Of a stretch of DNA of 64,000 nt, positions 1,617 to 46,399 are shown piece after piece. The stretch is from Squalus acanthias (Eukaryota). Within the stretch, counting starts at the first letter, position 1. Each line of letters starts with the position of its first letter. Position numbers and translations under genes: made by a program. Under the pieces are notes generated by a model. That model was not told where the DNA came from, made no database searches, and saw nothing but the letters and a program-made list of their open reading frames with translations. The stretch spans positions 372,001 through 436,000 of the forward strand of contig JASTWF010000323.1 in NCBI GenBank assembly GCA_030390025.1, in the 5' to 3' direction.

Positions 1617-1693
1617 TTCTGGTGGATGGGAGATTCCCGAGACTCAGGTTCCAGACTATCGCTGCTCCATAAAGCACCCAGGCCGGTTAAACG
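1617..1693 (+). CDS. D8C domain exon (SGGWEIPETQVPDYRCSIKHPGRLN)
   Basis: ttccag|T...ACG|gtaatt; aligns with uromodulin [24 protein letters not shown]. Confidence 0.85.
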
Positions 1694-4600
1694 GTAATTT
1701 CAGACTTTATAATCTCAGATTTACATTCACTGTCCAGCACTGTTCACCACGGTTACAATATTCAATATTTACAAATGACGTTTCAGGTTCTCATCCCACC
1801 GTGGGACAGGGAGAAGTGACGAGGACAGTTTGTTTCAGCTGGGAAGTAAATCCCTGCCACGGAACCGTGGAGATAAAGATCAAAAACTGCACCAGTTACT
1901 TCGTTTATGAGTTGAAGCCGACACCCGGAATGAACTCTGCTTATTGCACAGGTACATTGAGGGGGGTGGGGCAAAGGTTAGGAACTCGGGGCGGGGGGGG
2001 GGGGCAAAGGTCAGGATCTCGGGGTGGGGTGCAAAGATCAGGAACTCGGGGCAAAGGTCAGGAACTCGGGGATGTGCAAAGGTCAGTGTCTCGTGGTTGA
2101 AAAGTCACAAATTCGGAGAGGAAAGGTCAGGAAATCGAATGTGAAAGATCACAAACTCGGAGAGGAAAGGTCAGGAACTCGGGGGTGAAAGGTAGAAATC
2201 TCGGAGAGGAAAGGTCAGGAACTCGAAGGTGGAAGATCAAACTCGGGTAGGAAAGGTCAGGAACTCGGGGCGGGTGAAGGTGAGAAATTCGGGAGGGGGC
2301 AAAGGTCAGGAACTCGGGGGGCAAAGCTCAGTAACTCGGGGGGCCAAAGGTCTGGAACGCTGAATGAAAAAGGTCAGGAATTTGGGGGGGCAAAGGTCAG
2401 TAACTCGGGTGGCCAAAGGTCAGTAACTCGGTTGTGGCAAAGGTCAGTAACTCGGGTGGCCAAAGGTTAGGATATCGGGGTGCCAAAGTTCAGTATATCG
2501 GGGGGCCAAAGGTCAGTAACTCGGGGGGACAAAGGTCAGTAACTCGGGGGGACAAAGGTCAGTAACTCCGGGGGACAAAGGTCAGTAACTCGGGGATGGC
2601 AAATATCAGGGACTCGGTGGTGGGGCAAAGGTCAGGAACTCGGAGGGGAGTTCCTGAACTCGGGGGGGATAAGTTCAGGAAATCGGAGTCAAAGATCAGA
2701 AACTCGGTTGCGGGGGGGCTGAGGTCCGAAATTGCGGAGGGGAAGGTCAGGAACTCGGCTTGGAAAGGTCATGAACACGAGTGGGCTGAGGTCAAGATCT
2801 CGGAGGTGGAGGTCAGGAACTCTGGGTGGAAAGGTCATGAACTAAGGGGGGAAAGGTCAGGAACATCGTGGGGGGCGAAGGTCAGTAAATCGGGGGTGGG
2901 CAATGGTCAGGAATTCGGGAGGGCAAAGGTCAGCAACACGGAGTTCAAAGGTCAGGAACTCGGGGGGGGCAAAGGTCAGGATCTCGGGCGGCAAAGATCA
3001 GGAACTCGGGGTTGGCAAACGTCAGGAAATCGGCGTGGAAACGTCATGAACTAGTGGGGGAAAGATTAGGGGTGTTCTACGGTCAGGTACTGGGGGTCAG
3101 AGATTGTCAGGAAATCAGGGTTGGGGAGAGAAAGTCAGGAACTCGGGGCAGGTGTTTGGATGGGTAGGATTGAAGCTCAGGAATTCGAGAGGGGGACTGA
3201 AGGTCAGGGTCACGGGTGTGTGGGTGGAGATGGAGTGATGGCCAATATATCATTCCTGAGGTGCGGTGCCCAGATCTGAACACAGTTCTCCAGATGGGGT
3301 CTTACTGGGAGAGTGTTTTTGTAACCGGGATATGGGACACTGAGGGCCCTGAACAGATATCAAAGTCCCAGACACTGACTGCTGCTCATCGACGAACACT
3401 GGGACAGTAAATGAACTGCGATGGTCCCTGTATTTAAATTACATTTCTAGAATCACCAAGGCTGGAACTTTAATTGGCACTGCGTGTTAGCGAGATAATA
3501 TTTACAGTTTGAATCCCTCCCGTGTCAGTAATGTGTCAGTATTGATTGATGCTGTGAGGGAATTTTTTGATAATGTAATCGGGCAGATGCAAAATGGTGC
3601 CATGGCAGAGGGACTTCAGTTCTGTGGAGAGACTGGTGAAGCTGGGATTCGTCTGCTTAGAGCAGAGAGGATTAAGGTAGATTTGATAGAGGTGTTCAAA
3701 ATCATGAATGGTTTTGACAGAGTGAATAAGGAGAAAAGGTTTCCAGTGGCTGAAGGGTCAGTAACCAGAGGTCACAGATTAAAGGTGATTGGAAAACGAA
3801 CCAGAGGCGACATGAACAAACATTGTTTTACACAGCGAGTTGTTGTGATCTGGATGCACTGCCTGAAAGGGCGGTGGAAGAAGGTTCAATAATAAGTTCA
3901 GAAGGGAATTTTTAAAGGGATACGATTGACAGATCTCCGCGGCAAGAGCAGGGGAGTGAATTAATTGGACAGCCCTTTCAAAGAGTCGGCACAGGCACGA
4001 TGGGTCGAAAGGCCTCCTTCTGTGCTGTATCATTCTATGATTCTATGATGTAATGTTTGTCAGATGATGCTGACAGATTGAGAACAATAGATTGTTCACA
4101 TCAGAAGCACGGATAAGATCTTTTAAAGAGCACACGAGTACATTTAGCAACATATGCAAGCTAGACTGAGTAGAGAGAGAGCGAGTTCGGAGAGTGTTTG
4201 TGTAACCAGGGCAGGGGACACTGTGAGATGCCTGACCAGATATCAGTCTCCCAGACCCTGGCTCTGGCTCACCCACTAACACTGGGACAGTAAAAGGACT
4301 GCGATGGTCTCTGTATTTAAATTAAATGTCAAGAATCAGTAAGCGTGTGTTTCGCGAAAAATTAGTGTAATCTCTACACTGGAGAGTGTTACTCTCATCC
4401 CAGGAATCTAGCTGGTGAAGCAGGGATAAACGGGACAATTTCGGGATGGCTGGTTGTCACTCGTGGAGTACCTCAAGGATCAGTGCTTGGGCCTCAGCTA
4501 TTTACAATCTATATCAATGACTTAGATGTGGCGGCTGAGTGTAATGTATCCACGTTTGCTGATGTTACAAAGGTGGGAAAGTAATTCATAGATGCATAAC

Positions 4601-7600
4601 GGCACACAAGGAGCACGTTCAGCCCATTGAATCTGTGCCGGCTCTCTGTAGAGCAATCCAGTTACACCCATTCCCCCGCTCTATCCCCGTAGTCCAGAAA
4701 GTTAATTTCCCTCAAGTGCCTATCCAATCTCCCCTTGAAAACATTGACTGTCTCCGCTTCCACCATTCCGTCGGCACTGAATTCCAGGTCATCACCACAC
4801 GCTGCGTAAAAAAAGTTTTTCCTCACATACCCTCTGTATTTCTTGCCCAAAACCTGAAATCTGTGTCCCCTAGTCCTTGTACCATCAACTAGTGGGAACA
4901 ACCTTTCCCCGTCTATCCTGTCCAAACCCGTCATAATCTTGTACACATCTATCAACTCACCCCTCAACGTCCTTTGCTCTAATGAAAACAAATCCAGCTT
5001 CTCCAAACAGCCTTGTAGCTAACATCCCTCATCCCCGGAGACATTCTGGTAAATCTACCCTGCATCCTCTCAAGGGCCTTCACATCCTTCCTAAATTGTG
5101 ATGACCAGAACTGGACGCATTATTCTATTTGTGGCTTAACTAGCGCTTTATAAAGGTTCAGCATAACTTCTCTACTTTTGTACTCAATAACTCTATTTAT
5201 GAAGCCCAAGATCCCATATGCTTTGTAAACCACTCTCTCATTATGTCCTGCCACCTTCAGGGACTTATACATATTAACTCCCAGGTCCCTCGATCCCTGC
5301 ACGCTCTTTAAAACTGTGCCATTAAGTGTATATTGCCTCTCCCTGTTCCTTCTGCCAAAATGCATCAACTCACACTTCTCTATTAAATTCCATCTGCCAC
5401 TTGTCTTCCCATTCTGCTGGCCTTTCTATGTCCTGTTTCAGTCGATTGGTATCGTCATCACTGTTTGCCACGTCCCCAAGTTTGGTTTCATCGACAAATT
5501 TAGAAATTCTACTACGTATTACAGTGTCCAGGTCATTTATAGAAATTTAATAAAAACAGTGGCCCCAGCATTGACCCTTGGGGAACACCACTGTCTACCA
5601 TCCTCCAGTCTGAAAAACAGCCATTTACCACAACTCGCTGTTTTCTGTCCGTAAGCCAATTCCTTATCCAAGCTGCCACTGGCCCACCTATTCCATGAGC
5701 CTCAATTTTGTTAACCAGCCTTCTTTGTGGTAGACAACATCCTTTGCATTCCCTTCATCAATCCTCCCTGTTACTTAAAAACAAAATAGATTTTTCAAAC
5801 AGGATCTGCCTTTTACAAATCCGTGTTCGCTTTCCTTAATTAGCTTAAACGTGTCCAAGTGCCCGTTAAATTTTTTCCTTGATTATTGTTTCTAAAACTT
5901 TACCCCCCAGTGATGTTAAAGTGACCGTCCCATAGTTACTAGGATTCTCCTTACACCCTTTCTTGTACAATGGTGTCACAATTGCCACTTTTCAATCCTG
6001 AGGCTCCTCCCCGCATCTAGGGAAAATTGAAAATTATGGCAAGCCCTTCCGCCATATCCTCCCCCAATTCCCTTAGCAACTTGGGATGCAAGCCATCTGA
6101 ACCAGTCGACTTATCCACTCTAAGCATACCCAGCCTTTCTAGTACATCCTGTCTCTCAATTTTTACCCCTTCCATTGCATCTACCGTTTCCACTTCTAAC
6201 GCTGTTTTGTCAGCATCCACCTCCTTAGCAAACACCAATTCAACGTACTCATTTACTATTCTCGCCTTGCCCTGCGCCTCCAAGCATATATCACCTTCTT
6301 TGTCTCCAATAGGCCCCACCCCGCCTCTTACACCCACTTACTGTTTGCATGCCGGTAGACGATTTTTGGTTCCCTTTTATGTTAACCGCCATTCTACTCT
6401 CATGTTCTCTCTTTGCCACTCTTATTTTCATCTTCGCATCCCCTCTCAACTTATTGTAAGCTGTGAGGAGGAAGCAAGGAGGCTGCAAAGGGATATAGAC
6501 CGGTTAAGTGATTGAGCAAGTTGGAGGCAGATGTAGCATAATGTCAGGAAATGTGAAATTATACATTTTGATAGGAAGAATGGAAAAACAGCACAAGGTG
6601 AGAGATTAATAAATGTTGGTATTCAGAGGGATTTGGGGGTCCTTGTACATGAATCACAGAAAGTTAAATTGCAAGTACAGCCAGCAATTATGAGGGTATG
6701 TTTGCCTTGACTGCAGGAGGGTTGTAGTATAAGAGTAAGGAAGCCTTGCAGCAATTATATAGGGCTCTGTTGAGACCACAACTGTACTGTGCACAGTGTT
6801 GGTCTCCTTATCCAGGGAAGGGTATACTTACCTCAGAGGGGTTGCAACGAATGTTCTCTAGATTGATTCCAGTGAAGAAAGTGTGTCCTATGAGGAGAAA
6901 TTAAGTTGAATGGGCCCATATTCTCTGAAGTTTAGAAGAATCAGAGGTGATCTCATTGAAACGTGTAAAATTCTTAAAGGGCCTGACAGGGTAGATGCTG
7001 AGAGGCTGTTGTTCCCTTGCTGTAGAGTCTTAAACTAGGGGTCATAGTCTCAGGATAAGGGGTCGGCCATTTAGGACTGTGATGAGGAGAATTGTTTTCA
7101 CTCAGAGGGTTGTGAATCTTTGGAATGCTCTACCCCAAAGGGCTGTTGTGCTCAGTCGATGAATATTTTCAAGGCTGAGATTGATAGATATTTGGGCACT
7201 AAGGGAACCAAGGTAAATGGGGCTAGGGTGGGATGGTGGAGTTGAAGTAGAAGATCAGCCATGATCTTATTGCGGAGCAGGCTCGAGGGGCCAAAACGCC
7301 TACTCCTGCTCCTATTTTTTGTGTTCTAATAAACACAGACCGTTCCCCAATACTGACCATAACATGCTCTGACCCTCCCCAGTTCCATTCTGCTTTCTGA
7401 ACCATGGCTAAGAAAATAAATTAAAGCTAGGTTTAAGTGAAAGGAGGTAGCTTCCAATGTTGCCAGAAAAAGGGGTCAGCCTGAGGATTGGGATCTTTTT
7501 AGAATTCAGCAAAGGTGGAACAAGAAATTGATACGGAAAGTGAAAATGGAATATGAGCACAAACTAGCGAAAAAAATAAAAACGGATTGTAAAAGCTTCT

Positions 7601-10600
7601 GTAGGTATGTGAAAAGGAAAAGATTGCCGAAGGTAAATGTAGGTCATTTAGAGTCAGAGACGGGAGAATTTATAATGGGGAATGAGAAAATGGTAGGGAA
7701 ATTAAATAAATAGTTTGTTTCTTTCTTCACGGAGGAAGACACAAAAAACCTCCCAGAAATACGAGAAAACCAAGGGTGTGGCGAGAATGAGGATCTTAAA
7801 GAAATTATTAATAAAAAAAAATGCTAGCAAAATTAATGGGACTAAAAGTCGATAAATCCCAAGGACCGGATGACCTACATCGGAGGGTTTTGAATGAGGT
7901 GGCCATTGGGATAGTAGTCGCATTGGTTGCCATCTTCCAAAATTCTATAGATTCTGGAATGGTTCCTGCAGTTTGGTGGATAGCAAATTTAACCCCGCTA
8001 TTTAAGAAAGGAGGGAGAGAGAAAACGGGGAACTACAGACCTGTTAGCCTCACATCAGTAGATGGGAAATTGCTGGAATCTATTATAAAATTTGCAGTAA
8101 CTGGGCAATTAGAAACTAAGAGTAAGATTGGGCAGAGTCAACATGGATTTATGAAAGGGAAGTCCTGTTTGACAAACCTGTTGGAGTTCTTTGAGGATGT
8201 AGCTAGTGGAGTAGACAAAGGGGAACCGGTAGATGTGTTGTATTTGGATTTTCAGAAGGGCTTCGATAAGATCCCACACAAGAGGTTGGTGAACAAAGTT
8301 AGGGCACATGGAATTGGGGGTAATATACTAGCTTTATTTTGCTTAACAGACAGAAAACAAAGAGTAGGGATAAAAGGTTTTTTTTCGGGATGGCAGGCTG
8401 TGACTAGTGGGGTACCGCAAGGATCGGTGCTTGGGCCCCAGCTATTCACATTCTATATCAATGATTTGGATGACGGGACAAAATGTAACATTTCCAAATT
8501 TGCTGATGATTCAAAGCTAGATGTCAGTGTCAGCTATGAGGAGGATGTGAAGTGGCTTCATGGGGATCTCGACAGGCTCAGTGAGTGGGCGAGATCATGG
8601 CAGATGGATTATGGTGTGGATAAATGTGAAGTTATCCACTTTGGTAGAAAAAAGAGAAAGTCAGAGTATTTCCTACATGTTGAAAGTTTGGGGAATGCAG
8701 ATGTTCAAATGGACCTGGCTGTCCTTGTACATGAGTCACTGAAAGTGAATGTGCAGGAGCAGAAATCCATAAGGAACGCAAATGGTTTGCTGACCTCGAT
8801 TACAAGAGGATTTGAGTACAGAAGTAAATAAGTTTTACTCCAATTATATAGGGCCTTGGTGAGACCACACCTAGAGTCCTGTGTACAATGTTGGTCTCCT
8901 TATCTAAGGAAGGATATACTAGCCATAGTGGGAGTGCAACAAAGGTTCACGAGATTGATTCCTGGGATGATGGGACAGTCGAATGAGAAGAGAGTGAGTT
9001 AGGAACTCGGGTAGGATGAAAAGGTTAGGAACTCGGGTGGGATGGGAAAGGTCAGATCTCGGGGGGGCAAAGCTCAGGAACTGGCGGGGGTCAAAGTTCA
9101 GGGACTCTTGGGGGGCAAAGATTAGGAACACGGGGGGCAAATATCAGGAACTCGGACCAGGACAAAGATCAGGAACTCGTGTGGAAGAGTCAGGAGCTCG
9201 GGGGTCAAAGGTCAAGAACTGGGGCAATAGTCATGAACACGGGTGGGGACAAAGATCAGGAACTCGGGGGCCAAAGGTTAGGAGCTCCTGGGGGGCAGAG
9301 GCCAGGAACTCATAGGCGGGGGGCGGGGGGGGTGTTCAGGATCTCGGAGGGGAGGGGCTAAGGTTGGAATTCGGGGCGCGTCACAGGTCAGGAACTCGTG
9401 GATGAAAGGTCAAGATCTCGTGGGTCAACGGTCAGAAACTCGGGAGGGGCAAAGGTAAGGGCCTTGGGGCGGGGCAATGGTCAGGAACTCGGGGCAAACG
9501 TCAAGTGCTCGGTGGGGTGCAAAGTTCAGGAACTTGGGAGGAAAAGATCAGGAACTCGGACGGGGAAAAGGTCAGGAACTCGCGGGGCGGGGTGGAAATC
9601 AGGAACTCGGTGGGGGGTGGAAAGGTCAATATCTCGGGATGGGTTAAGATCAGGAACTGTGGAGTGCAAAAGTCAGGAACTCGGTGGGGGAGGAGAGAAG
9701 ATCACGAATTTGGGCGGTGCTGGTGGGAGGGATGGTTAGGAGCTTGGGCAAGGGGAGAAGTTCAGGAACTCGGGAGAGGGGAGAAAAGGTCAGGAACTCG
9801 GTGGGGGGATGAGGGCACGGAAGGTCAGGAAATTGGTCAGGTGCAGGAGGTGAAGAACTTGGGTTGGGGAAATAGGTCAGGAATTTGGTTGGGGAGTGGG
9901 AAAAGGGTTCTGGAGATTTGGCCGGGGTGAAAAGGACAGGAACTTGGGTGAGGATGGGGAAGGAGGTCAGGAACTTGGGTGGGGGTGGGGGAGGAGGTTA
10001 GGAATTTCGGTGGGGGTGGGGGAGGAGGTCAGGAACTTGGGTGAGGGTGGCGAGGGGGTCAGGAAATTCGGCGCTGGGGGCAGGAACATGTTTGCGGGTG
10101 GGAGAAGGTCTTAACCCGCGAGGGTGAGCCCTGTCTGTTCCAAGTGAGCTCTGTTCTGTCTGGAGTAGATTGTCAGAATGTCTCGAATTAAACTTTGCAA
10201 AGTAACTGTTTAAGTAGGCAGGGAGAAACTAATTAAACATTCCAGGGACTCTGCTGGGTGTGCCTTGTCCTCCAAGTGGACCAATGAGCAATCAGGACTT
10301 GTCATTCAAGAGGTCCAATCAGACAGTGTTGCGAATAAACACGCCACGTTGAAATAATCCAGAAGTGTGACTCTAGGATGTCCCGTGTTATCAACAGAAA
10401 TAAGAAAGTTACACGCCCTGTTGTCAGAGACACAATGCATAAAGGAACTGAAACACAAAGTGTACATTTCACCAAAGCTATAGGGAGCTCAATCAGACGC
10501 TATTCTCCGTGTCTATCGGTCACTCTGTTCCCTGCGGTGCCCACTGATCGCGATAGACCCCCAGTGTAGCGCTGGCCACCGCACGCTCCCTCTCCAGGCT

Positions 10601-13600
10601 TTCTGGGTCACAATGAATAGGATTGGGTGATTCTGGGTTTTATAAAGACTGGTGCCGGACATTCTCCGGACTCGATTACCAGCCTGATGACCTGTCCTGG
10701 TGTTCTCCACTCTGCAATCTCCCGTGTCTCTCTTCATTTATTATAGATCCCAAGACCGTCCCAAATCAGGAACCCGAGGAACATTCGACCCGTGAATCAG
10801 CTGACCGCAGATCATCTATTCCACTGGTGTCTACAGCCGCAGGTATCTGCCTTGTGGAGTCCATTCTAAACAGACTGCTCTCCGAATGTAACTGCAGCAA
10901 TCCTCAGACCCTCAGATGGATCCAATCCCTTACTGAGGGGTGTGGGATGGACTGTCTGACATGAGTGGGATGTGGAGACTGAGGGGAATTGGAGGCAGCA
11001 TCTGACGGAAGTGGAATGCAGTGCCTGAGGAAGCGGGATGTAGTGAATGAGGGGAGTGTGATGAAGTGAATGAGGGGAGTGTGATGTAGTGAATGAGGGG
11101 AGTGTGATGTAGGGAATGATGGGAGAGTGATGTAGGGAATGAGGGGAGTGTGATGTAGTAAATGAGGGGAGTGTGATGTAGTGAATGAGGGGAGTGAGAT
11201 GTAGTGAATGAGGGGAGTGTGATGTAGTGAATGAGGGGAGTGAGTTGTAGTGAATGAGGGGAGAGTGATGTAGTGAATGATGGGAGTATGATGTAGTGAA
11301 TGAGGGGAGTGAGATGTAGTGAATGAAGGGAGTGTGATGTAGTGAATGAGGGGAGTGAGATGTAGTGAATGAGGGGAGAGTGATGTAGAGAATGATGGGA
11401 GTATGATGTAGTGAATTAGGGGAGTGTGATGTAGTGAATGAGGGGAGTGTGATGTAGTGAATGTGGGGAGTGAGATGTAGTGAATGAGGGGAGTGTGATG
11501 TAGGGAATGAGGGGAGTGTGATGTAGGGAATGAGGGGAGTGTGATGTAGTAAATGAGGGGAGTGTGATGTAGTGAATGAGGGGAGTGTGATGTAGTGAAT
11601 GAGGGGAGTGTGATGAATTGAATGAGGGGAGTGTGATGTAGTGAATGAGGGGAGTGGGATGCAGTTAATTGTGGCAGTGTGCTGCAGTGACTGAGGCGAG
11701 TGGGACGCAGTGACTGAGGGGAATGGGATGCAGTGAATTAGGGAAGTGTGTTTTCGTGACTGAGGGGAGTGTGATGTAGTGAATGAGGGGAATGGGATGC
11801 AGTTAATTATGGCAGTGTGCTGCAGTGACTGAGGACAGTGGGACGCAGTGAAAGAGGGGAGTGGGATGCAGTGAATTAGGGAAGTGTGTTACAGTGACTG
11901 AGGGGAGTGGATTGAGGAGAATGAGGGAGTGGATTTAATGGCTGAGGGGAGTGGAATTGGATGATTCTGGGTTTTATAAATACATTCTCCGGACTCCAGT
12001 ACCAGCCTGATGACCTGTTCTGGTGTTGTCCACACTGCACTCTCCCCTGTCTCTCTTCCTTTATTGCAGATCCAGAGACATCTCCAACTCAAGAACCCGA
12101 GGAACAATCGACTCGTAAATCAGCTGACCGCACATCCACTACTCCAGCGGGGTCTGCAGACTCAGGTATCTGCCTTTTGTATTCCATTCTAATCAGATTT
12201 CTCACACAGTGTATTTGCTGAAATCCTCAGTACTGACAATTCGTCCATCTTCTGAGCGGAACGTGATGTAGAGACGGAGCGGTGCTGGATGAGCAGATTG
12301 TTTGAAGTGGGATAAGGACACTGAGGGGAGTGCGCTGTACTGAATGTGGAGTGCAGGACCAGGTGACTGAGGGAATTGGATGAAGATTCTGAGTGGAGTG
12401 TGTTGAGTTTTCTAAGTGAAGTGGGTTGAGGATTCTGAGGAGACTGCGGTGAGCAGCGTGAGTGGTGTGTATTAAGGAAACTGAGGGGATAAGAATGAGC
12501 TGTCTGAAGGGAGTGGGATGCAGCGACAGAGGGGAGTGGGATGCAGCAATTGTGTGCGTGAGAATTAGTGATTGAGGGGAGTGGGCTGCAGTGACTGAGG
12601 AGAGTGCGATTAGGTGTCCGAGGGGAGTGAGATGCAGTAACTGAGAGGTGTGCGATGTATTGACTGGGAGTTGTGGGATGTGGCGGCTGGGATGAGTGTG
12701 ATTCATTGACTGAGGAAATGCAGTGACTGAGGGGAGTGGGATGCAGTGACTGTGCGGTGTGAGTACAGAGACTGAGGGGTGTGAGATGCAGTCACTGAGG
12801 GGAGTGGGATGCAGTGACTGAGGGGAGTGGAGGTAGTTACTGAGGAAAATAGGATTGGATGATTAGGCGTTTTATAAAGACTGGTGTCTGACATTTTCTG
12901 GTCTCTAGTACCAGTCTGATGACCTATGATGGTCTTCTCCTCTCTGCACTCTCCCATGTCTCTCTTCCTTTGTTACAGATCCAGAGACATTCCCAACTCA
13001 CGAACTCGAGGACCAATCGACTCGAGAATCCGCTGAACGTTCATCCTCTCTCCCAGCGGCGTCTGCAACCTCAGGTATCTGCCTTGTGGGGTACATTGTA
13101 CACAGACTGTTCACCCAATGTAACTGCTGGAATCCTCAGTCCCTCAGCTTCATTCACTATCTTGTTGAGGGGAGTGGGATGTAATGAAGTATGGGTGTGG
13201 GATGCGCGGACTGTGGGAAGTGGGACAAGGAGACTGAGCGAAGTTTGATGTAGTGATTGAGGGTAGTGGGATGCAGTGACTCAGGTGTGTTGTACCAGGA
13301 GACTGAGGGAGTGGGATGAAGGTTCTTAGTGTAATATGATGAGGTTTCTAAGGGAAGTGGGTTGATGAGTCTAAGGGGGTCGGATGAGAACACTGAAGGG
13401 AGTGGGATGGGGATACTGAATGGAGTGGAAAGAGGTGACTGAGGGAAGTGGCAAGAAGAAAGTGAGTGTAGTGGTAGTTAGTGACTGAGTGAAGAGAGCT
13501 GAGTGGACTGAAGAGAGTGGGACGCAGTCACTGGGGGAATTGGGATGCAGTGACTGAGGGAAATGGGTTGCAGTGACTGAGGTTTCTGGGATGCAGTAAC

Positions 13601-16600
13601 TGACAGGTGTGCGATATATTGACTGAGAGGTGTGGGACGCAGTAACTAAGGGGAGTGGGATTGGATGATTTTGCGTTTTATAAAGACTGGTGTCTGACAG
13701 TCTCCGGGCTCTGGTACACTCCTGATGACCTGTTCTGGTTGTCCCAGCTCTGCACTCTCCCATGCTTCTCTTACTTTATTGCAGATCCTGAGACATCCCC
13801 AACTCAGGAACCCGAGGAACAAACTAATCGCGAATCCGTTGATCGTTTATCCACTATTCCAGCCGTGTCTGCAGCCTCAGGTAACTGCCTTGTAGTTTCT
13901 ATTCTGCACAGATTGCTTAATAAATGTAGCTGCAGAAATCCTCACTCCTGACAATTCATCCATCTCTTACTGAGCGGATTCGGATGTAGTGACGCAGGGG
14001 TGCAGGATGAGCAGATTGTCGGAAGTGGGATGGTGACACTGAGCGGAGTGGGATGCAGTGAAGGGCGGAGTGTGATGCAGTGATCGACGGGAATATAATA
14101 TAGTGACTGAGGGGAGTGGGATGGAATGAATTATGGCAGTGGGTTGCAGTGACTGAGAGGAGTGCGCTGCAGTGACTGAGGCGAGTGGGCTGCAGTGACT
14201 GAGGCGAGTGGGCTGCAGTGACTGAGGGGAGTGGGCTGCAGTGACTGAGGCGAGTGGAATGCCGTGACTGAGGTAGGTGTGGGCTGCAGTGACTGAGGGG
14301 AGTGGGATAAAGTGACTGAGGGGAGTGGAATGCCGTGACTGACGGACGTGGGATATAATGGTTGATGGAGTGGAATTGGATTTTTCTGGGTTTTATAAAG
14401 ATATTCTCCGGACTCCAGTACCAGCCTAATGACCAGTTCTGATGTTGTCCACTCTGCACTCTCCCACGTCTCGCTCTCTTTATTACAGATCCAGAGACAT
14501 CCCCAACTCAGGAATCTGAGGAACATTCGACTCGTGAATCCGCTGACCGTACATCTACTATTCCAGCGGGGTATGCCACCTCAGGTATCTGTCTAGTGGG
14601 TTCCATTCTACACAGATTGCTCTCCAAATATAGCTGCTGAAATCCTCAGTCCTGACAATTCAGCCATCTCTTACTGAGCGGAGTGGGATGTAGTGACGGA
14701 GGGGTGCAGGATGAGCAGACTGTTTGAAGTGGGATGAAGATACTGAGCGAAGTGGGATGTAGTGACTGAGTGGTGCGGGACCAGGAGACTAAGGGGAGTT
14801 GGTTAAAAATTCTGAGTGGAGTGTGATGAGTTGTCTAAGGGAAGTGGTGTGAGGATTCTGAGGGGAGTACGATGAGCAGAGTGAGTGGATTGGAATTAGG
14901 AGTCTGAGGGGCGTAGAATGCAGTGTCTGAGGTGAGTGGGATGAGGAGTGCGAGGGGAGTTGGAGCACTGACTGAGAGGTGTGCGATGTATTAACTGGAT
15001 GGTGTCGGGATGGGGCGGCTGAGAGGATTGTGATGCTTTAACTGAGGAGATTGAAATGCAGTGAATGAGCGATATGGAATACAGAGACTGAGCGGCGTGA
15101 GATACTGTAACTGAGGGGAGAGGGATGCAGTAACTGAGGAGAGTGGGATGCAGTGACTGAGGGGAGTATGATGCAGTAACTGTGGGGAGTGGAAGGCAGT
15201 CACTTAGGGGAGTGTGATGCAGTAACTGAGGGGAGTGGGAGGCAGTTACTCAGCGTAATAGGATTGGATGCTTATGCGTTTTATAAAGACTGGTGTCTGA
15301 CATTTTCTGGGCTCTAGTACAAGCCTGATGACCTATTCTGTACTTCTCCACTCTGCACTCTCCCTTGTCTCTCTTCCTTTATTACAGATCCAAAGACATC
15401 CCCAACTCACGAACTCAATGATCAATCAACTCGCGAATCCGCTGACCGTACATCCACTATTCAAGTGGGGTCTGCAACTTCAGGTCTGGTTTTTGTGGGG
15501 TTCCTTCTACACAGACTGTTCACCCAATGTAACTGCTGAAATCCTTAGTCCCCCAGATTCATCCAGTCTATTACTGAGGGGAGTGGGATGCAATGACTGT
15601 GGGAAGTGGGATGAGGAGACTCAGGGGAGAGGGATGCAGTGACTGAGGGGGAGTACGTTTTCGTGACTTAGGGAGTTGGTTGTAGTGCAGCAGGTGCTGG
15701 ATGACTATCGGTTATTTAAAGTCTGGAGTCTGGCATTCTCCGGACTCTTGTATCAGCCTGATGACCTGTTCGGGTCATCCCCAGTCCTTCACTCTCCAAT
15801 GATTCGTGTCCTTTATTATAGATCAAGAGACAATCCTGACTCAAGAACCGGAGGAACAATCATCTCAAGAATCCAATGAGAAATCGTCCTCTATCCCAGC
15901 GGGGTCTACAGCCTCAGGTATCAGTCTGGCGGGGTTCCTTCAAAATGACAATTCACCCAATATGACTCCTGAAATGCTCATCCTGAGAATCACACAGTCT
16001 CGAATGAGACCTTTCTCAAAGAATAGATTTCCCGCACTATATACAAGCTTCCTCGGATTTATCATTTCAAATCAGGGTGCGCATTCAGGAAATGTGACAG
16101 AACCGGAAGTGACTGAGAGAAACAATGGTGGAGTCTGTGACCTTTGGGGAAGGGGCAGTACAGATGGAGCTTGTAATACCAGGAGGGTTTCTTTCAGACA
16201 TTGGGTGACTGAACTGGAGGCGTGGATTTAACAGCACAGAAGCAGTCCATTCGGCCCATCTGATCCATGCTAGTGTTTATGCACCATACAAGTCTCCTCC
16301 CACCCTACTTCATCTCACCCTATCAGCACAACTTCGTAGACATTTCTCCCTCACGAGTTTATCTAGCTTCCCCTTAAATACATCCATGATATTCGACTCA
16401 ACTACTCCTTGTAGCGAGTTTCACATGCTCACCCGTCTCTGGATAAAGGAGTTTCTCGTGAATTCACTTTAAGATATATTAGCGACTATCTTATGTTATT
16501 GACCCCTAATTTTGGATACCTCCACAAATGGAAACATCCTCACTAGGTCTACCTCTCAAAGCCTTCATAATTTTAAAGACTTCTATCATGTCCCCCCTCA

Positions 16601-19600
16601 GCCTTCTCTTGTCTAGATAAAGTAAGCCCCAGCTTTTTTAATCTTTCCTGATAGTTGTACCCCCTCAGTTCTCGGAACAGCCTTGGAAACCTGGTTGTTG
16701 CACTTTCTCCAGTGCCTCTATAACCTTGTTCATATTATGGAGACGTTAACTGTGCGTAGTACTCCAAATGTGATCTACCAATGGTATATGGAGATCAGAA
16801 CAGTGCACCATACTCCAATTGTGATCTAACCAAGGTATATGGAGACCAGAACAGTGCACACTGCTCCAAGTTTGGTCTAACTAAGCTAAAAGGAGAGTAG
16901 AACTGTGCATCCTACTCCAAGTATTGTATAACCAAAGTATATGGAGACCAGAACTGTGCACAATGCTCCAGGTGTGGTCTAACCAACGTATATGGAGATC
17001 AGAACTGAGCAGAGTACTCCAAGTTGGGCTTAACCAAGGTTCTATACAAATTTAACATTACTTCCCTGCTTTCCATTTCGATTATTCTAGAAATGAACCC
17101 CAGTGCTTTGTTTGAAATGCGATTTACAACACGGAATTAGAGCAGATATATTTGACTTGGACTAAACCTTGAACTAAGATCCATTGTTCCCACATCAAAA
17201 AATCTGAGACAGAGGCACCTTATGAAGGGACAGTTTCAAAATGAATGTCCCCAGACACAATCTGAGGGAATAAGTCCACCGGAAACATTCTTGATATGAC
17301 GATCCACGAACTGAGATGTTATATTTTGTGCATATGGATATTCGCATATTTAAGGCATGCTATGTTAACAGGAAACAAATTGGAGAATAGAAGGATCCCA
17401 TGATTGAGTGCTTGTCACTATGTGTTCCACATGGCAGTATCGGTAATAGGTTGTCAGCTTTTTCCTACCACTCTTTCTTGCTGTCTCTCTCTCTTCCTGG
17501 CTCTCTCTCTCTCTCTGTTTCTTTCTCACTCCCTCTCTTTCTCTCTCTGTCTCTCTTGATCATTATCTGTCTGTCACCCTCTGTCTATCTTTCTCTGTCT
17601 CTCTATCTCTCCCACTCCCTGTCTCTCCCTCTTTCTCGATTTATTTGTCTCTTTCTCTCTAGCTCAATCTCTCTCTCTTTCTGTCCATTTCTTTGTCTCT
17701 CTCCCTTCGTCTCTCTCTCTGTCTCTTTTTCTGTCTCTCTCTGTCTCCCTCTCTTTCGCAACCTATCTCGCTTTTTCTCACTTTCTCTCAATCTGTCTCC
17801 CTTTCTCCCCGTCTTTATCTTACGTTACCAGTCTTTATTTCTCTCCGTCATTCTCTGTCTCTCTCTGTGTATCAGTCGCTACCTTTCTCCCTCCTTGTCA
17901 CACTCTTTTTATCTCTCTCTCCCTGTATTTCTTTCTCTTTCCCCAGTCTCTCTCTCTCTCTCCATATAGGTATCTTTCTCTCTCTCTATCTATCTCTGTC
18001 TCTCCCACTCACTCATTCTGTTTCTCTCTCTTTTGTTCTCTCTCTCTGGCTCTCTGTCACTATCTTCACTCTTTCTCTCTCTGTTTCCAACTCTCTCTCT
18101 CTCTCTGTCTCTGTAACTCATTATCACTCTGTCTGTGTCTCTCTATATATTTACCTGCCTCTCTCTGCCTATTGATCCTTCAGTCCTGAATTGTCTCTTG
18201 TCTCTGTGCCCATCAGTTCAATGTCCGGCCCGGTGCTTTGAGAGACCCGGACCGAGCAGGAAGATCCACTCTTGATCCAGTGGTCTTTCTCCATCCTCCA
18301 ATTCCCATGTGGCTGATCTTTCATTACAGATTCGGGGAAGACGACACGTCCTGCAACCAAGGGAGAGTCGTCATCAGAAGCTGAGTGCAAACCTTCAGAG
18401 GAGGGACATTCAAGGCCAGGTATCAGTCGGCTTCTGGTAGGAACCATCCAATCAGACTCTCTCAGAGTCCACTCCCGGAAACATTCAGTCACTGACTCCA
18501 TCCTCGGACATTCAGTTATTGAACCTCCCAAATATCCTGCTTTATAATCTGACTGCTCAGTCCCAGTTATCAGGGCAAGTCTCTCCCAATATTAAAAACA
18601 TAGAATAGAACAGGCCATTCGGCCCAACTGGTCCATGCCAGTGTTTATACTCCATACCAGCCTCCTCCCACCTCTCTTCATCTAACCTCATCAACATATC
18701 CTTCTTTTCCCCTCTCCCATTGTGTTTATCTAGTTTCCCCTTAAATGCATCTTTACTATTCACCTCAACCATTCCCTTTCGTAGCGTGTTCCACATTCTT
18801 AACACTCTCTGGGTAAAGACATTTCTCCTGAATTCCCTATTGGATTTATTAGTCACTATCTTATATTTATGGCACCTAGTTTTGCACGGTCCCACAAATG
18901 GAAAAATCTTCTTTACATTTATCGTATCGAACCCTCTTCAGAATTTTAAAGATATTTACAAGCTAACCGCTCAGCCTGATCTTTTCTAGAGAAAAGAGCC
19001 CAGCCTGTTCAGTTTTTCTTTGAATTCCCTTCCCCTCCCCTTTACTGTGCTTCTATTGGCTCTCAGGAGTCAGGAGCCGGGGTTGGGGCTTCATTCACTG
19101 CCCCTCCCCAGTGCCCTGTGAATGAGGAGCTGTGGGGCTGCCTTCTCGAGCTGCTGTGGGGAATTGTGGTGTTCGGGTCAGGGGGGTGTTGTGAAAGCAG
19201 CGACTGGGCCTGGAATTGTTCGCACAGACCCACGTTCCCAGTTTCAGCTTCCAGAACAGAAGGTCCTCGGTTGGACCGGCACTCCGGGTTTGCCCCACTC
19301 CATGCCGCCTCCATGTAACCGGTTGATATATCTGCCTCTAAATCTGCCCGGGGGAGCTGGGGGCGGTTGGGCGTATCGGCTGAATGCTTGTCCTCTTAAT
19401 GTTCCAGGGGTACTGAAATTGTCGAAGGAGGAGTGGGAGAAGGTCAGTGCCGAGGTCCAGGTGATGTACATCGGCAAAAACAAACTGGAAACTCCCGCGG
19501 AAAAGGAAGTCTATCTCCGGCAGGTGAGGGATTTATTCTTCATTAATTCTCGGGGTGTGCCGGCACTGATAGACCAACCCCAGTTGGCACAGATTGACCA

Positions 19601-20290
19601 ACACCAGTTGGCATTGATTGAAAAACACCTTTCGGCATTGATTGATCATCCCTAGTTGGCATTGATTGACCAACCCCAGTTATTATTGATTGATCATCTC
19701 CAGATGGCATTGATTGACCATCCCTCGTTAGCATTGATTGACTAATCCCAGTTGGCATTGATTGACCATCACCAGTTCCGATTGATTGACCAGGCCCATT
19801 TGGACTGGTGTTGAGGGGAGGGGACTCCCCTGGTGTTAAGGGGAGTTGATTCCCCTGGACCTAAGGGGGAGGGAATCCTCTGGTGTTAAGGGGAGTGGAG
19901 TTACCTGGTGTTAAGGGGAGTGGAGTTCCCTGGTGTTAAGGGGAGGTGATTGCCCTGGACTTAAGCGGGGAGGGGGGGAATCCCCTGGTGTTAAGGGGAG
20001 TGGAGTCACCTGGTGTTAAGGGGAGGGAATTGCCCTGGTGTTCAGGGGAGGTGATTGCCCTGGTGTTAAGGGGGAGGGGATTCCCTGGTGTTAGGGACTC
20101 GGTGATGTTTCTTGAGAGCCCCTGTTGAGGTGCGGTTTAACTGCGTCCCCTCTCTATCGTGCCCCAACGTGTCATTCTCGCCAATTCCCAGGTACAAGAC
20201 ATGCTGAAAGACCACCTCCCGTACAAGAAATACACGCTGCAGTTTCACGGTGAAAAGGCGGATAAAGCTGGAAAGAAGAAACAGAAATGA
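1617..20290 (+). CDS. Multi-exon gene (5' end outside window): uromodulin/GP2-like D8C domain + exon-repeat mucin-like stalk + short C-terminal domain; about 405 aa encoded in window
   Basis: Exons 1617-1693, 1787-1951, 10747-10842, 12070-12165, 12979-13074, 13785-13880, 14489-14584, 15388-15483, 15822-15917, 18330-18419, 19408-19523, 20192-20290; all have AG/GT boundaries, compatible phases and no stops; the splice creates AYCT-DP as at the end of the uromodulin D8C domain. Confidence 0.8.
1787..1951 (+). CDS. D8C domain exon (GSHPTVGQGEVTRTVCFSWEVNPCHGTVEIKIKNCTSYFVYELKPTPGMNSAYCT)
   Basis: tttcag|GT...ACAG|gtacat, 165 nt, phase 1-1; aligns with uromodulin [56 protein letters not shown]. 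Confidence 0.9.
1965..3210. repeat. G-rich minisatellite, ~23-bp unit (aaaggtcaggaactcggggggc)
   Basis: Tandem degenerate copies; same unit as 8999-10110. Confidence 0.9.
3590..4048 (+). mobile_element. CR1 LINE 3' fragment
   Basis: DLIEVFKIMNGFDRV..TRGHRLKV..FTQRVV ORF2 C-terminus; attctatg tail. Confidence 0.85.
4440..7328 (+). mobile_element. CR1 LINE RT-to-3' fragment, split by a nested antisense CR1
   Basis: GVPQGSVLGPQLFTIYINDLD..FADV at 4465-4580 resumes at 6456 (VSCEEEARRLQRDIDRL); tail cctactcctgctcctatt at ~7300-7328. Confidence 0.85.
4585..6455 (-). mobile_element. CR1 LINE (5'-truncated, degenerate) nested in another CR1
   Basis: Minus ORFs 4662-5006, 5120-5368 and 6017-6337 are CR1 ORF2 segments; gtaa duplicated at 4581-4584 and 6456-6459. 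Confidence 0.85.
7395..8998 (+). mobile_element. CR1 LINE ORF2 (reverse transcriptase) fragment
   Basis: ORF 7821-8831 with NYRPVSLTS, YLDFQKGFDKIPH, GVPQGSVLGP, FADD; 3' end replaced by minisatellite. Confidence 0.9.
8999..10110. repeat. G-rich minisatellite, ~23-bp unit (aggtcaggaactcggg core)
   Basis: Same family as 1965-3210, degenerating rightwards. Confidence 0.85.
10747..10842 (+). CDS. Stalk exon 1 (DPKTVPNQEPEEHSTRESADRRSSIPLVSTAA)
   Basis: ttatag|AT...CAG|gtatct, 96 nt, phase 1-1, open. Confidence 0.85.
11030..11880. repeat. 23-bp minisatellite (tgatgtagtgaatgaggggagtg / gatgcagtgactgaggggagtgg) in stalk-exon intron
   Basis: Tandem copies; variants recur between the stalk cassettes up to ~15660. 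Confidence 0.9.
12070..12165 (+). CDS. Stalk exon 2 (DPETSPTQEPEEQSTRKSADRTSTTPAGSADS)
   Basis: ttgcag|AT...CAG|gtatct, 96 nt, open. Confidence 0.85.
12979..13074 (+). CDS. Stalk exon 3 (DPETFPTHELEDQSTRESAERSSSLPAASATS)
   Basis: ttacag|AT...CAG|gtatct, 96 nt, open. Confidence 0.85.
13785..13880 (+). CDS. Stalk exon 4 (DPETSPTQEPEEQTNRESVDRLSTIPAVSAAS)
   Basis: ttgcag|AT...CAG|gtaact, 96 nt, open. Confidence 0.85.
14489..14584 (+). CDS. Stalk exon 5 (DPETSPTQESEEHSTRESADRTSTIPAGYATS)
   Basis: ttacag|AT...CAG|gtatct, 96 nt, open. Confidence 0.85.
15388..15483 (+). CDS. Stalk exon 6 (DPKTSPTHELNDQSTRESADRTSTIQVGSATS)
   Basis: ttacag|AT...CAG|gtctgg, 96 nt, open; weaker donor. Confidence 0.8.
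15822..15917 (+). CDS. Stalk exon 7 (DQETILTQEPEEQSSQESNEKSSSIPAGSTAS)
   Basis: ttatag|AT...CAG|gtatca, 96 nt, open. Confidence 0.85.
16232..17110 (-). mobile_element. Old CR1 LINE 3' fragment containing an internal 51-bp x6 tandem amplification
   Basis: ccattcggcccatc tail motif at ~16250; 16736-17041 repeats the LVRPHLEYCVQFWSP-coding segment six times. Confidence 0.8.
17470..18170. repeat. (CT)n-rich low-complexity tract
   Basis: Degenerate ctctctgt repeats. Confidence 0.9.
18330..18419 (+). CDS. Diverged stalk exon 8 (DSGKTTRPATKGESSSEAECKPSEEGHSRP)
   Basis: attacag|AT...CAG|gtatcagtc, 90 nt, phase 1-1; donor context identical to stalk exon 7. Confidence 0.7.
18595..19020 (-). mobile_element. 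CR1 LINE 3' fragment
   Basis: Minus ORF KTRCHKYKI..FRRNVFTQRVLRMWNTL; tail catagaatagaacaggccattcggccc. Confidence 0.8.
19408..19523 (+). CDS. Penultimate coding exon (GVLKLSKEEWEKVSAEVQVMYIGKNKLETPAEKEVYLRQ)
   Basis: gttccag|GG...CAG|gtgagg, phase 1 to 0, open, non-repetitive protein-like sequence. Confidence 0.75.
19560..19800. repeat. 24-bp minisatellite (ccagttggcattgattgaccaacc)
   Basis: About 10 tandem copies in an intron. Confidence 0.85.
19805..20095. repeat. 25-bp minisatellite (tggtgttaaggggagtggagttccc)
   Basis: Tandem copies in an intron. Confidence 0.85.
20192..20290 (+). CDS. Terminal coding exon (VQDMLKDHLPYKKYTLQFHGEKADKAGKKKQK*)
   Basis: ttcccag|GTA..., phase 0, TGA at 20288-20290. 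Confidence 0.75.
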   Translation, partial: VQDMLKDHLPYKKYTLQFHGEKADKAGKKKQK

Positions 20291-22830: not shown

Positions 22831-24680
22831 ATCCCCACTCCCCTCCCCCTCACAACCCAACTCACCGCCCAACTTCCCACCCCCTCACAACTCCAATCCA
22901 CTCCCCTCCCCCTCACTGCCCCACACACCTCACCCTCACCACACCACGCCCCACCGTGTCATCTCCCCAATCCCCTTCCAATCACCGCACCTCTCCATTG
23001 CCCCTCACCACCCCATACCCCTCCCTCTCACCACACAAATCCCCTCCATATCACCGCCCCTCTAAGCTCCCCCACATCCACCCCACTCCCCTAACTTTCA
23101 CCGCCCCACTCCACTCCCCCTCACAAACCAAATCCCTGTACTCACAGCCCAACTCCCCTCCCCCTCAACACCGCACTCCCCTCCCCCTCACCGCCCCACT
23201 CCCCTCCCTCTCACCGCCCCAATCCCCTCCCATTCACTGCCCCTCTCTGCTCCCCGAGTGCACCAATCCGCTCCCACTCACCGCCTTTCCGTGCCCCTCA
23301 CCACTCCACGCCCCACCAATTCACCACCTCACTCCCCCCCCTCTCAGCGCAACACTTCCGTCACCGTCACACTCCCCTCCATCTCACGGCCCCACTCACC
23401 GCCCCACTCCTCTCCCCCTCATCGCCCCACTCCCCTTTCCCTCACCGCCCGACTTCCCTTCCCCTCCCCCTCATGGCCCCACTCCCCACCCCCACGCACA
23501 GCCTCACTCCCCTCCCCCTGACCGCTCAACTCCCCTACACCTAAACGCCCCACTTCCCTCACCCTCACCGCCACACTCCTCACGCCCCCTCCCCTCCACA
23601 CTCCACTCCCCTCAAGTTCAGCCCCCCACTTCCCTCTCTGGAAACCGTAGCACTCACCTCCTGTCCACCACCACACTCCCCTTCCCAGCACTGCCCACTC
23701 CGCTACCCCACACCCTCACCACCCCACTCCCCTTCCCAGCAACCGTTCCAATCCTCCTACCCTCACCGCCCCACTCCACTTCCTCTCACTGTGCCACTCC
23801 TCACGTCACCACCACAATCCCCTCCCACTCCTCACCAACCAATCTCCTGCTCAACACCCCACTCCCCTCCTCCTCACTATCCCAGTCCCAGCAACCTCAC
23901 CACCCAACTCCCATCCCGCTCATCGCCAAATTTCATCCCCTTGACGGGCCCCACTATTCCCCATCACTGGGCCACTCCCCTCCCCTTCAGTACACCACTC
24001 CCCCCCTCTCAGAGCCCCACTCCCCTCCCAATCACTGCCCAACTCCCCTCCAAATTAGCGCCCCACTCCACTCACAATCACCACCCCACTCCCCTCCTCC
24101 CCACTACTCAACTCCCCTCCCTTCACCATCCCCCTCCCCACAGCTCCCCTTCCCCTCTGTCCCTCTCCCCTCCCCCTCAACGCCCAACTCCCCTCCCCCA
24201 GACCGCCCCACTCCCCTACACCACACCACCCCACTCCCCTCCCCCACACCGCCCCACTCCCCTATCCCTCACCATTTCTCTGCCCACCACCTCCACCCCC
24301 CTCACCGCCCCACTCCCCACCATCTCACCATCACGCTCAGTCCCCCTCACCGCCACACTCCCAAATCCCTCACCGCGCCATTCCCAACCGCCTCACACAC
24401 GACCGTCCCCTCACCTTCAGCGCCCCACTCCTCTCCCCCAATCTCCTCCCCCACACCGCCCCACTCCGCGACGTCACCGCCGCACTCACCCATTACCGCC
24501 CCACAACCCACCCACTCGCCGCCCCACATCCCACCCACTCACCGCCCTACTTCTCCCGCCCACTCCCCTTCATCTCACCGACACCCTCCCGCCCCACACC
24601 ACTCCCCGTCAGCAACCCACTCACCTCCCGCTCACCCCCACTTCCCACCCTCCTTCTCCCCCTCCCCATCCCCATCCCCG
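22830..24680. repeat. C-rich ~23-bp minisatellite (cactcccctccccctcaccgccc)
   Basis: Explains the Pro-rich 660-aa ORF. Confidence 0.85.
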
Positions 24681-25215
24681 GACGTGACCTCACCGCGTAG
24701 ACTTCTCCACCAACATGGCCGCCCCGAATAGCTCCACAGGCCCCGCCCCCTCTCCACGGTCACGGGCTCGGTTGACCCGCTATCCCAGAGTGAAGCGCCT
24801 CCCTGAGCCACCGTTCCAATGGGGCATCCGCGCACCCGACCCGTGATGGACAGGTGGGCGAACCAACGAAATGGGTGCTGCTATTCATGACCAAGTCAGC
24901 GCGTCTCTGCTCCACTGAGACCCCGCCACCCGCCGGCACTGTGATGGACAGCGGAGTCAAACAATGGCTGAGGGGCGCTGCCGCGCTTTGACCAATCGGA
25001 GCGCCACCTTGCTGTTCAATTCCTGTCTGGCATTATTGCGTCATTCCCCGACAAACGTTTGAGAGTCATTGCCCGACCAGCGTCATTGCGTCATTTCGCT
25101 TTGACAGACGGTCGAGTGAGGCGCTGGGGGCGCTGGAACCAATGAGAAACCAGAGGGGAATAAGCGCTGCTTAAAGCCAAGCCGACCTCGCTGAATTATG
25201 GTTATGCAAATGTTT
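24678..25215. promoter_or_regulatory. CpG-rich promoter-like region
   Basis: CCAAT at ~24816, ~24992, ~25139; tgcgtca twice (~25038, ~25088); tgatggacag twice; YY1-like caacatggc 24711; GC box ccccgcccc; octamer ATGCAAAT ~25204. Confidence 0.55.
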
Positions 25216-29014: not shown

Positions 29015-29150
29015 TTCAGGTCCGCCGATTGTGCGGTGAATGTGAGCTCAGTGCGTCTCACCGGAAGTGACCTCATCCCGCAGAGGTGATCGCCAACATG
29101 GCCCCCACCGGCAACACGTTCCTGTCCGCCATCTTGTCAATACCCCCCGC
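29015..29150. promoter_or_regulatory. ETS (CCGGAAGTG) + YY1-like elements, paralogous to 24678-24727
   Basis: ccggaagtgacctcat..ccaacatggccccc..ccgccatcttg versus ccggacgtgacctcac..ccaacatggccgcc. Confidence 0.45.
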
Positions 29151-44805: not shown

Positions 44806-45827
44806 CATAGAAACATAGAAACATAGAAAATAGGTACAGGAGTCGACCATTCGGTCCTTCGAGCCTGCACCGCCATTCAATGCGTTAATGGCTGAACATG
44901 CTACCTCAGTACCCCATTCCTGCTTTCTCGCCATACCCCTTGATCCCCCTAGTTGTGAGTGTTATATCTAACTCCCTTTTTGAATATATTTAGCGAACTG
45001 GCCTCAACAACCATCTGTGGAAGAGAATTCCATAGATTCACCACTCTCTGGGTGAAGAAGTTCCTCCTCAGCTCAGTATTAAATGGCTTCCCCTTAATCC
45101 TTAGACTGTGACCCCTGGTTCTAGTTTTCCCTAACATTGGGAACATTCTGCCCGCACCTAATTTGTCTAAACCAGTCAGGATTTTAAATGTCTCCATAAG
45201 ATCCCCCCTCATTCTTCTGAACTCCAGAGGATACAAGTTCAGTTGACCCAATCTTTCTTGATATGTCAGTCCGGCCATCCCAGGAATCAATCTAGTGAAC
45301 CTTCGCTGCACTCCCTCAATAGCAAGAATGTCCTTCCTTAAGTTAGGAGACCAAAACTGCGCACAATTCTCCAGGTGTGGCCTCACCAAGGCCCTGTACA
45401 ACTGCAGCATCACGTCCCTACTCCTGTACTCAAATCCCCTTACTATGAAGGCCATCATTCCGTTTGCTTTCTTGACTGCCTGCTGCACTTGCATTCCCAC
45501 CTTCAGTGACTGATGTACCATGACGCCCAGGTCTCGTTGCACCTCCCCTTTCCCTAATCTGCCACCATTCAGGTAATAGTCCGCCTCTCTATTTTTACCA
45601 CCAAAGTGAATAACCTCACATTTATCCACATTGTACTTCATCTGCCATACATTTGCCCATTCACCCAACCTGTTCAAGTCACGCTGTAGCCTCCTAGCAT
45701 CCTCCTCATTGTTCACACTGCCTCCCAATTTAGTGTCATCCGCAAATTTGGAGATATTACATTTAATCCCTTCGTCCAAATCATTAATATATAATGTAAA
45801 CAGCTGGGGTCCCAGCACCGAACCCTA
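44806..45827 (-). mobile_element. Young 5'-truncated CR1 LINE
   Basis: ORF 44949-45818; (tttctatg)n tail; nearly identical to the copy at 53483-55326. Confidence 0.95.
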
Positions 45828-46245: not shown

Positions 46246-46399
46246 TAAATACAGGTTTCGTCATTATGTTTAAAAACTGGTGGATTTTTAAGAAAAAATA
46301 ATCTCTCTGCCTGTCTCCGACCGTCCCTCACAGATACTCTGTCTGACACTGTCCTGCATTTTTCACTCTAGGTCTCTCCCTCCGTCTCCCTCTCCCCTT

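Follow-up and report, generated by a model that had tools for sequence, protein, structure and literature searches.

An array of symmetric exons between D10C and C-terminal exons

The window, a stretch of 64,000 nucleotides of Squalus acanthias DNA (positions 372001-436000 of contig C2484, in a 3.7-Gb assembly), carries on its plus strand an array of small repeated exons that sits between two D10C (D8C) exons upstream and two C-terminal-domain exons downstream. Each of the 12 exons of this gene, hereafter the window copy, is open and flanked by an AG acceptor and a GT donor. The features of the gene model are as follows.

1617..1693, plus strand: D10C domain, exon 2 of 3, 77 nt, phase 2-1 (AG/GT edges; tblastn with shark homologs)
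1787..1951, plus strand: D10C domain, exon 3, 165 nt, phase 1-1, two hypervariable loops (PF23283)
10747..10842, plus strand: repeat exon 1, 96 nt, phase 1-1 (splice edges, flank profile)
12070..12165, plus strand: repeat exon 2 (splice edges; paralog RNA contigs with exon-exact edges)
12979..13074, plus strand: repeat exon 3 (splice edges; paralog RNA contigs with exon-exact edges)
13785..13880, plus strand: repeat exon 4 (splice edges; paralog RNA contigs with exon-exact edges)
14489..14584, plus strand: repeat exon 5 (11-nt upstream deletion in common with exon 2)
15388..15483, plus strand: repeat exon 6 (weak donor GTCTGG)
15822..15917, plus strand: repeat exon 7, the most diverged (splice edges, flank profile)
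10843..15821, plus strand: cassette introns, degenerate 23-bp minisatellite (largest array 11037-11953, 40 copies)
18330..18419, plus strand: linker exon, 90 nt, phase 1-1, one Cys (C702 paralog 97% identical; counterpart in sawshark model P0130)
19408..19523, plus strand: C-terminal domain, first exon, 116 nt, phase 1-0 (conserved in paralogs; family profile)
20192..20290, plus strand: C-terminal domain, last exon with stop (no hydrophobic anchor)

Each of the seven repeat exons is exactly 96 nt long, follows a pyrimidine tract and a CAG or TAG acceptor, is open in phase 1-1 and ends at a GT donor, and the additional 90-nt exon at 18330-18419 is likewise open, phase 1-1 and AG/GT-bounded. These exons, first described in an earlier note on this DNA, are real, and paralogs are spliced likewise. 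The introns that separate the repeat exons range from 338 to 1227 nt and consist mostly of a degenerate 23-bp minisatellite. The intron after exon 5 matches best the intron after exon 2, and by sequence comparison cassettes 2-3 and 5-6 look like a two-cassette duplication with a period of about 2.4 kb. Because the unit exons are all phase 1-1, unequal crossover in the minisatellite introns or skipping would alter length and leave the frame unbroken. Across the 224 residues of the seven units, S, T and P together account for 43% and E for 14%, which agrees with the S/T/P/E-rich character first reported and qualifies the units as PTS tandem repeats, with an acidity above the usual mucin PTS level. 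The unit length of 32 residues also stands, but the unit quoted in the earlier note is a consensus, not the sequence of a single copy.

Over the 21 cassette pairs, gap events per pair were 0 in the exons, 0.38 in the 90 nt upstream and 0.71 in the 70 nt downstream, so indels do fall in the flanks and spare the exons, as had been claimed. Mean identity was 0.77 for exons, 0.79 for the upstream flank and 0.735 for the downstream flank, and what is conserved beyond the flanks is therefore the frame only, not the sequence. The proposal of purifying selection on frame thus holds for the frame and not for the amino acids (dN/dS was 0.68 among the seven window repeat exons and 1.24 in the family). 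When random substitution was simulated, all seven exons stayed free of stops in 6.5% of 20,000 trials, so that the frame evidence from the window alone is only suggestive. For a stronger test, we built a profile from the upstream intron flank only and ran it on the window and the fetched loci. It recovered 42 cassettes, six of them cut at locus ends, and all 36 complete ones were 96 nt long, open and AG/GT-bounded, many being close paralogs and hence not independent.

The exon at 1787-1951 matches the Pfam family PF23283 (D8C_UMOD) with an E of 1.5e-6 and 28.7 bits, above the curated cut-off of 27, and the 77-nt exon before it has equal length in 29 of 30 paralog loci. These two exons (1617-1693 and 1787-1951) together cover all but the first third of a D10C domain of the uromodulin/GP2 type. 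D10C exon 3 is phase 1-1 too, and some isoform models of Carcharodon skip it, which would break the head.

At the other end, the reading frame runs for about 70 residues through exons 19408-19523 and 20192-20290 to a stop; candidate poly(A) hexamers lie at 20708, 22236 and 22280. We found no membrane or glycosylphosphatidylinositol (GPI) anchor in the window copy, whose last exon is basic and polar. The transmembrane tail of a ray model (P0069) has no match in the window copy, and hydrophobic windows downstream of the last exon lie mostly in a TC repeat and inside no modeled exon. The earlier note called the array a mucin-like stalk; having no anchor, it is the spacer of a secreted protein and not a membrane stalk. 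The window copy also has no ZP module, its frame ending at 20290, and its C-terminal exons have no Pfam match, so no SEA or VWD domain. Both conserved cysteines of the C-terminal domain are replaced in the window copy and kept in the C702 paralog, and the first replacement is common to 8 of 20 fetched paralog exons; the loss of both may mean a lost disulfide. The idea that this domain is half of a SEA domain was rejected: the predicted model of a relative shows two helices, a structure search with that model gave no solved match at E 0.001 or better, Atlas matches stayed below the cut-off, and nothing consistent emerged in Pfam for 16 C-termini of the other type. The two C-terminal types of the family align weakly (probability 30%).

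An incomplete front end as assembled

As assembled, the D10C domain of the window copy is incomplete, the first of its three exons being without a match, a feature that the earlier note had missed. In six close paralogs this exon lies 7.7 to 8.3 kb ahead of the exon pair. For the window copy, neither tblastn nor blastn found it in the 40 kb upstream, and the plus strand of contig C2484 has none, all five copies on that contig being on the minus strand. A leader exon was not found by tblastn with whole relatives over the same 40 kb, a search that a short exon can escape and that was not dedicated to it. A single match on the large contig C3 was considered as the parent gene and rejected, since in the 8 kb retrieved there it is a third exon standing alone.

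An identity of 98.6% to a paralog intron stops 1483 bases before the window, near 370,517 of contig C2484, and the break falls at the center of a 170-bp near-perfect inverted repeat in the intron of the C702 paralog (L045 4927-5300); it is either a real rearrangement or an assembly misjoin. Identity to the C2450 paralog drops from 97.7% in the head to 92.6% in the C-terminal exon, where other paralogs reach 95.6%, and this drop suggests that recombination gave the window copy a mosaic structure. The window copy is thus probably a 5'-truncated, non-functional fragment as assembled, which cannot make a whole head; its exons, we propose, are still open because the duplicate is young.

Relatives in the assembly and in other sharks and rays

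The earlier note had also overlooked that the array is part of a large family with hypervariable heads. Searches of the assembly gave 142 matches to the first D10C exon among 148 candidates (5 with stops, on 26 contigs) and 50 matches to the C-terminal exon among 55 (2 with stops). For the third D10C exon the best 150 of 162 candidates were scored (10 with stops), and for the repeat exon the best 150 of 666, none of these best-scoring ones having a stop. Judged by these exon matches, the family has at least 50 copies in the assembly. Paralogs carry 4 units (C702, in a copy whose first intron was only partly fetched), 7 (window), at least 12 (one C702 interval) or at least 18 (one C295 interval). 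The suggestion that array length can be tuned is upheld to the extent that unit number differs between paralogs.

A protein search with a sawshark relative gave 79 matches among 8000 scored candidates, all but one of them (78) from sharks and rays, of which 17 species were represented. A profile of the C-terminal domain matched 20 of 1.84 billion representatives, and 10 of the 10 looked up were sharks or rays. The window gene belongs with these automatic models, for example UniRef100_UPI00398F14D9 (P0130, sawshark), XP_067836995.1 (Heptranchias) and XP_041038350.1 (Carcharodon), with which it shares the D10C head, the 32-residue units, the linker and the C-terminal domain; the sawshark model has a signal peptide, D10C, units, linker and both last exons in the same layout. 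Unlike them, the window copy lacks the first D10C exon and both conserved C-terminal cysteines. Its head, its 32-residue units and its C-terminal domain place it in an elasmobranch family of D10C proteins without ZP, and family contigs carry none of the 150 ZP matches scored (of 318 candidates). Hydropathy reached 2.0 or more over a 19-residue window in 2 of 81 relatives scanned, and one of these two, the ray model P0069, has a clear transmembrane tail. Members are known as automatic models named 'uromodulin-like', 'GP2-like', 'OIT3-like', 'mucin-5AC-like' or 'uncharacterized', and we found no description of the family in the literature searched, which includes few subscription papers.

As a separate observation, ZP-domain exons have undergone large tandem expansions on contigs C1109, C1945, C2997, C3223, C3278 and C1879, which hold more than 100 of the 150 scored matches and are unlinked to the D10C family.

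Splicing of paralogs

We mapped contigs from three runs of one study, presumed to be RNA, chosen by species label and with tissue unrecorded, on positions 11960-15960 at 80% likeness; no RNA dataset linked to this interval was listed. None of the 110 mapped contigs reached 99% identity, 7 fell at 95-99%, 23 at 90-95% and 80 below. Mapped pieces end at exon edges, and the 15 joints listed (of 24) include three GT..AG joints and one head-to-tail 96-nt joint. The sequence of four loose ends before repeat exons agrees with that at the end of D10C exon 3, and these fit other paralogs better (24-30 of 30 letters, versus 20-25 for the window copy). These results show that the family is spliced as modeled in paralogs, from head exon to repeat to repeat. 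They also show that the RNA contigs derive from paralogs, and neither expression of the window copy nor skipping follows from them. Apparent exon skips in these contigs were rejected as alternative splicing, being paralog contigs with other cassette orders.

In Heptranchias and in sawshark, the two members of a RefSeq isoform pair are set apart by exactly 32 residues; in Carcharodon the differences are 32 and 65 residues. Three ray pairs diverge at the N-terminus only. These automatic isoform models of three other sharks, which differ by whole units, lend indirect support to the skipping of units that the earlier note foresaw.

Fold and cysteine pattern of the head

For one relative, matches to GP2/uromodulin reach an E of 1e-24. 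The AlphaFold model of a relative, P0015, compared with the GP2 decoy module (7P6R), gave an E of 2.9e-15, a TM of 0.83 by target and an rmsd of 1.7. On the model of this relative, rather than of the window copy itself, the head is predicted to have the GP2 decoy-module fold. Cysteines C2 and C9 are both absent in 39, both present in 38 and singly present in 16 of 93 database domains; the corresponding counts in this genome are five pairs with neither, four with both and one with one. Joint loss of C2 and C9 points to selection on a folded protein, although the counts share ancestry. In GP2, the N65 glycan has a role and FimH is captured by high-mannose glycan, according to the available text of PMC8930769. 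Of 22 first exons sampled from this genome, 6 carry a sequon at the N65 position, as do 41 of 82 database domains; the window copy is without that exon.

Selection on heads, repeats and the C-terminal domain

Heads were compared over the 30 paralog loci nearest the window copy (of 40 scored, from 151 candidates). Average divergence is 10.9% and 10.3% in the two head exons, against 4.0% and 5.3% in the adjacent intron stretches. After three broken copies and one duplicate were dropped, codon models run with our own code on the remaining 26 heads gave a dN/dS of 2.50, and model M2a was favored over M1a (2dlnL 144, p 6e-32), with 26% of sites near a dN/dS of 9 and 19 of 80 sites at a posterior above 0.95. 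Estimates were 2.59 and 2.68 with a separate tree for each exon and 2.90 without the subfamily of the window copy. By contrast, repeats had a dN/dS of 1.24 (34 distinct of 36; p 0.21 against 1) with a weak M2a signal (p 0.018), and the C-terminal exon one of 0.61 (20 distinct of 21) with no positive class. Heads are thus under strong diversifying selection that is concentrated in loops. Selection on the repeats keeps the frame and hardly constrains residues, and repeat sequence drifts.

The selected sites form four main clusters and one lone site, mostly in loops between model strands (alignment by eye), and one cluster corresponds to the loop after C5 of GP2. From the disulfide pattern in the available text of PMC8930769, rather than from coordinates, we expect the clusters to sit close together at the far end from the glycan groove.

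Comparison with known systems

The one-repeat-per-exon design, which the earlier note contrasted with classical mucin repeats lying within one large exon, has a precedent in chicken Muc13, described in 2006, whose PTS domain is encoded one repeat per exon and for which alternative splicing and recombination were proposed to set length (PMC1552070, available text), the same splicing hypothesis as here. According to the same text, Muc13 is a membrane-spanning mucin with SEA and EGF domains, and its repeats, 20 residues long, are almost identical. The shark units, unlike those of Muc13, have 32 residues, are acidic and about 77% identical, and belong to a secreted D10C protein of a multigene family. 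The frog mucin FIM-C.1 has also been called polymorphic through alternative splicing (PMC7177656, in the portion available). The exon-array design is therefore already known, and the family, hypervariable and without ZP, is a variation on a known type.

Teleost omcins resemble the shark family as expanded genes with a variable number of D10C domains. As given in the available text of PMC11415648, they are a clustered lineage-specific expansion of about 15 genes, omc5 protects zebrafish against bacteria, and Omc5 has EGF and ZP modules, a predicted GPI anchor and no exon-built spacer; a selection test is absent from the text covered. The shark family differs in having no ZP and at least 50 C-terminal exons. 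Human GP2 and uromodulin share the D10C fold with the shark heads (PDB 7P6R), and are single-copy genes with ZP filaments and glycan-based FimH capture (PMC8930769, same portion). Compared with them, the shark head carries no C3-C6 cysteine pair and, in its first exon, has an additional pair; it has often lost C2 and C9 together.

Neighboring features

Elsewhere in the window, an intronless 312-residue frame running from stop to stop at 49725-50663 (minus strand) encodes a rhodopsin-family receptor (7tm_1, E 7e-18), and a 178-residue frame at 39911-40447 (minus strand) has no Pfam match. LINE-type reverse transcriptase frames or fragments, which we take to be CR1, lie at 41564-43342 (plus), 44949-45824 (minus) and 53580-55319 (minus); LINE-type fragments also occur at 4400-9000 and fill most of the 10 kb before the window. 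An RNase H-like retroelement fragment lies at 45835-46260 (minus strand). CpG-rich promoter-like spots lie at about 24640-25150, where there is a possible minus-strand first exon and then a C-rich minisatellite, and at about 29020-29150.

Discussion

Our results make it probable that the array is a spacer region, belonging to one of a large elasmobranch family of secreted variable-head proteins, and that the window copy is a young, truncated mosaic of such genes. An intact member would consist of a signal peptide, one to several D10C heads, a variable number of 32-residue units, a linker and a small C-terminal domain, and would be secreted, having neither ZP module nor membrane anchor. Unequal crossover, between paralogs as well as between introns filled with minisatellite, would multiply its cassettes, and its symmetric repeat exons may sometimes be skipped. 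From their composition, the acidic S/T/P-rich units would form an extended O-glycosylated spacer. The heads, finally, would serve on mucosal surfaces or in body fluids to bind foreign ligands that keep changing, most probably microbial ones.

Several points weigh against this account. Assemblies can misjoin at inverted repeats, so the truncation may be an artefact, and some copies may be duplicated haplotypes, which leaves gene counts uncertain. The transmembrane tail of P0069 rules out secretion as a feature of all members. The isoform models come from automatic annotation, and their differences of whole units could stem from short paralog reads. Our codon models used fixed relative branch lengths and left gene conversion unmodeled, which can inflate the tests, and the first D10C exon differs by 15.6% against 10.0% and 16.2% in its flanks (22 hand-picked copies), no clear excess. 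A role in immunity is proposed by analogy with GP2, uromodulin and omcin.

Were the truncation an artefact, the window copy could be an intact, expressed gene that lost its front end to a misjoin and whose seven exons are alternatively spliced. Its 12 open exons with AG/GT edges, the position of the break at the center of the 170-bp inverted repeat of a paralog and the isoform models that skip units in three sharks would fit. We nevertheless think this unlikely: none of the 110 contigs, from three small runs of one study, reaches 99% identity, other paralogs are a better match for the four loose ends from head exons, and the plus strand of the contig is without a first D10C exon. That the cassettes are non-coding satellite-borne repeats, open by chance, is hardly credible, even though exon identity is no higher than that of the flanks, dN/dS is near 1 and seven window exons would have no stop by chance in 6.5% of cases. 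Spliced contigs with exon-exact edges refute it at the family level, all 36 flank-selected cassettes are intact, and the same units occur in protein models of other sharks.

Other readings concern what the heads do. They might be glycan decoys like GP2 and uromodulin that offer a high-mannose glycan to bacterial adhesins, their loops varying to escape microbial proteases or binders and not as a recognition repertoire, as the shared fold and the N65-position sequon in 41 of 82 database domains would allow. This strikes us as possible though doubtful, because that sequon is present in only 6 of the 22 first exons sampled here, there is no ZP module for filament formation, and a pure decoy needs no 26% of sites at a dN/dS of about 9. 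Secreted reproductive proteins are well known for fast adaptive evolution, and the tissue of the three runs is unrecorded, so a role in seminal, oviducal, gland or other secretion, with selection from sperm-egg or male-female conflict, also deserves mention. We hold it to be improbable: the closest tested relatives (omcin, GP2 and uromodulin) act against bacteria at epithelia, and at least 50 diversified paralogs suit a repertoire better than a single partner. Diversifying selection on the heads suggests a secreted recognition repertoire. We put forward, tentatively and at somewhat less than even confidence, that sharks and rays possess a germline-diversified D10C recognition repertoire of dozens of genes and about 150 heads, with four selected loops and a spacer whose length is set by cassette number and skipping; it would resemble the repertoires of antibodies or lectins.

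The family carries more weight than the window copy, since the array has a published precedent and the copy is probably broken. The human D10C domain, which belongs to single-copy genes, is a conserved decoy that presents a glycan; in the shark assembly there are about 150 copies, free of ZP and with diversifying loops. Experiments could start directly from the 19 selected sites, and the head, small and rich in disulfides, might serve as a binding scaffold. If the repertoire is real, a single animal could vary its heads in specificity, number and reach. Should the heads bind microbes, the family would be a further arm of cartilaginous-fish immunity, hidden until now by arbitrary annotation names.

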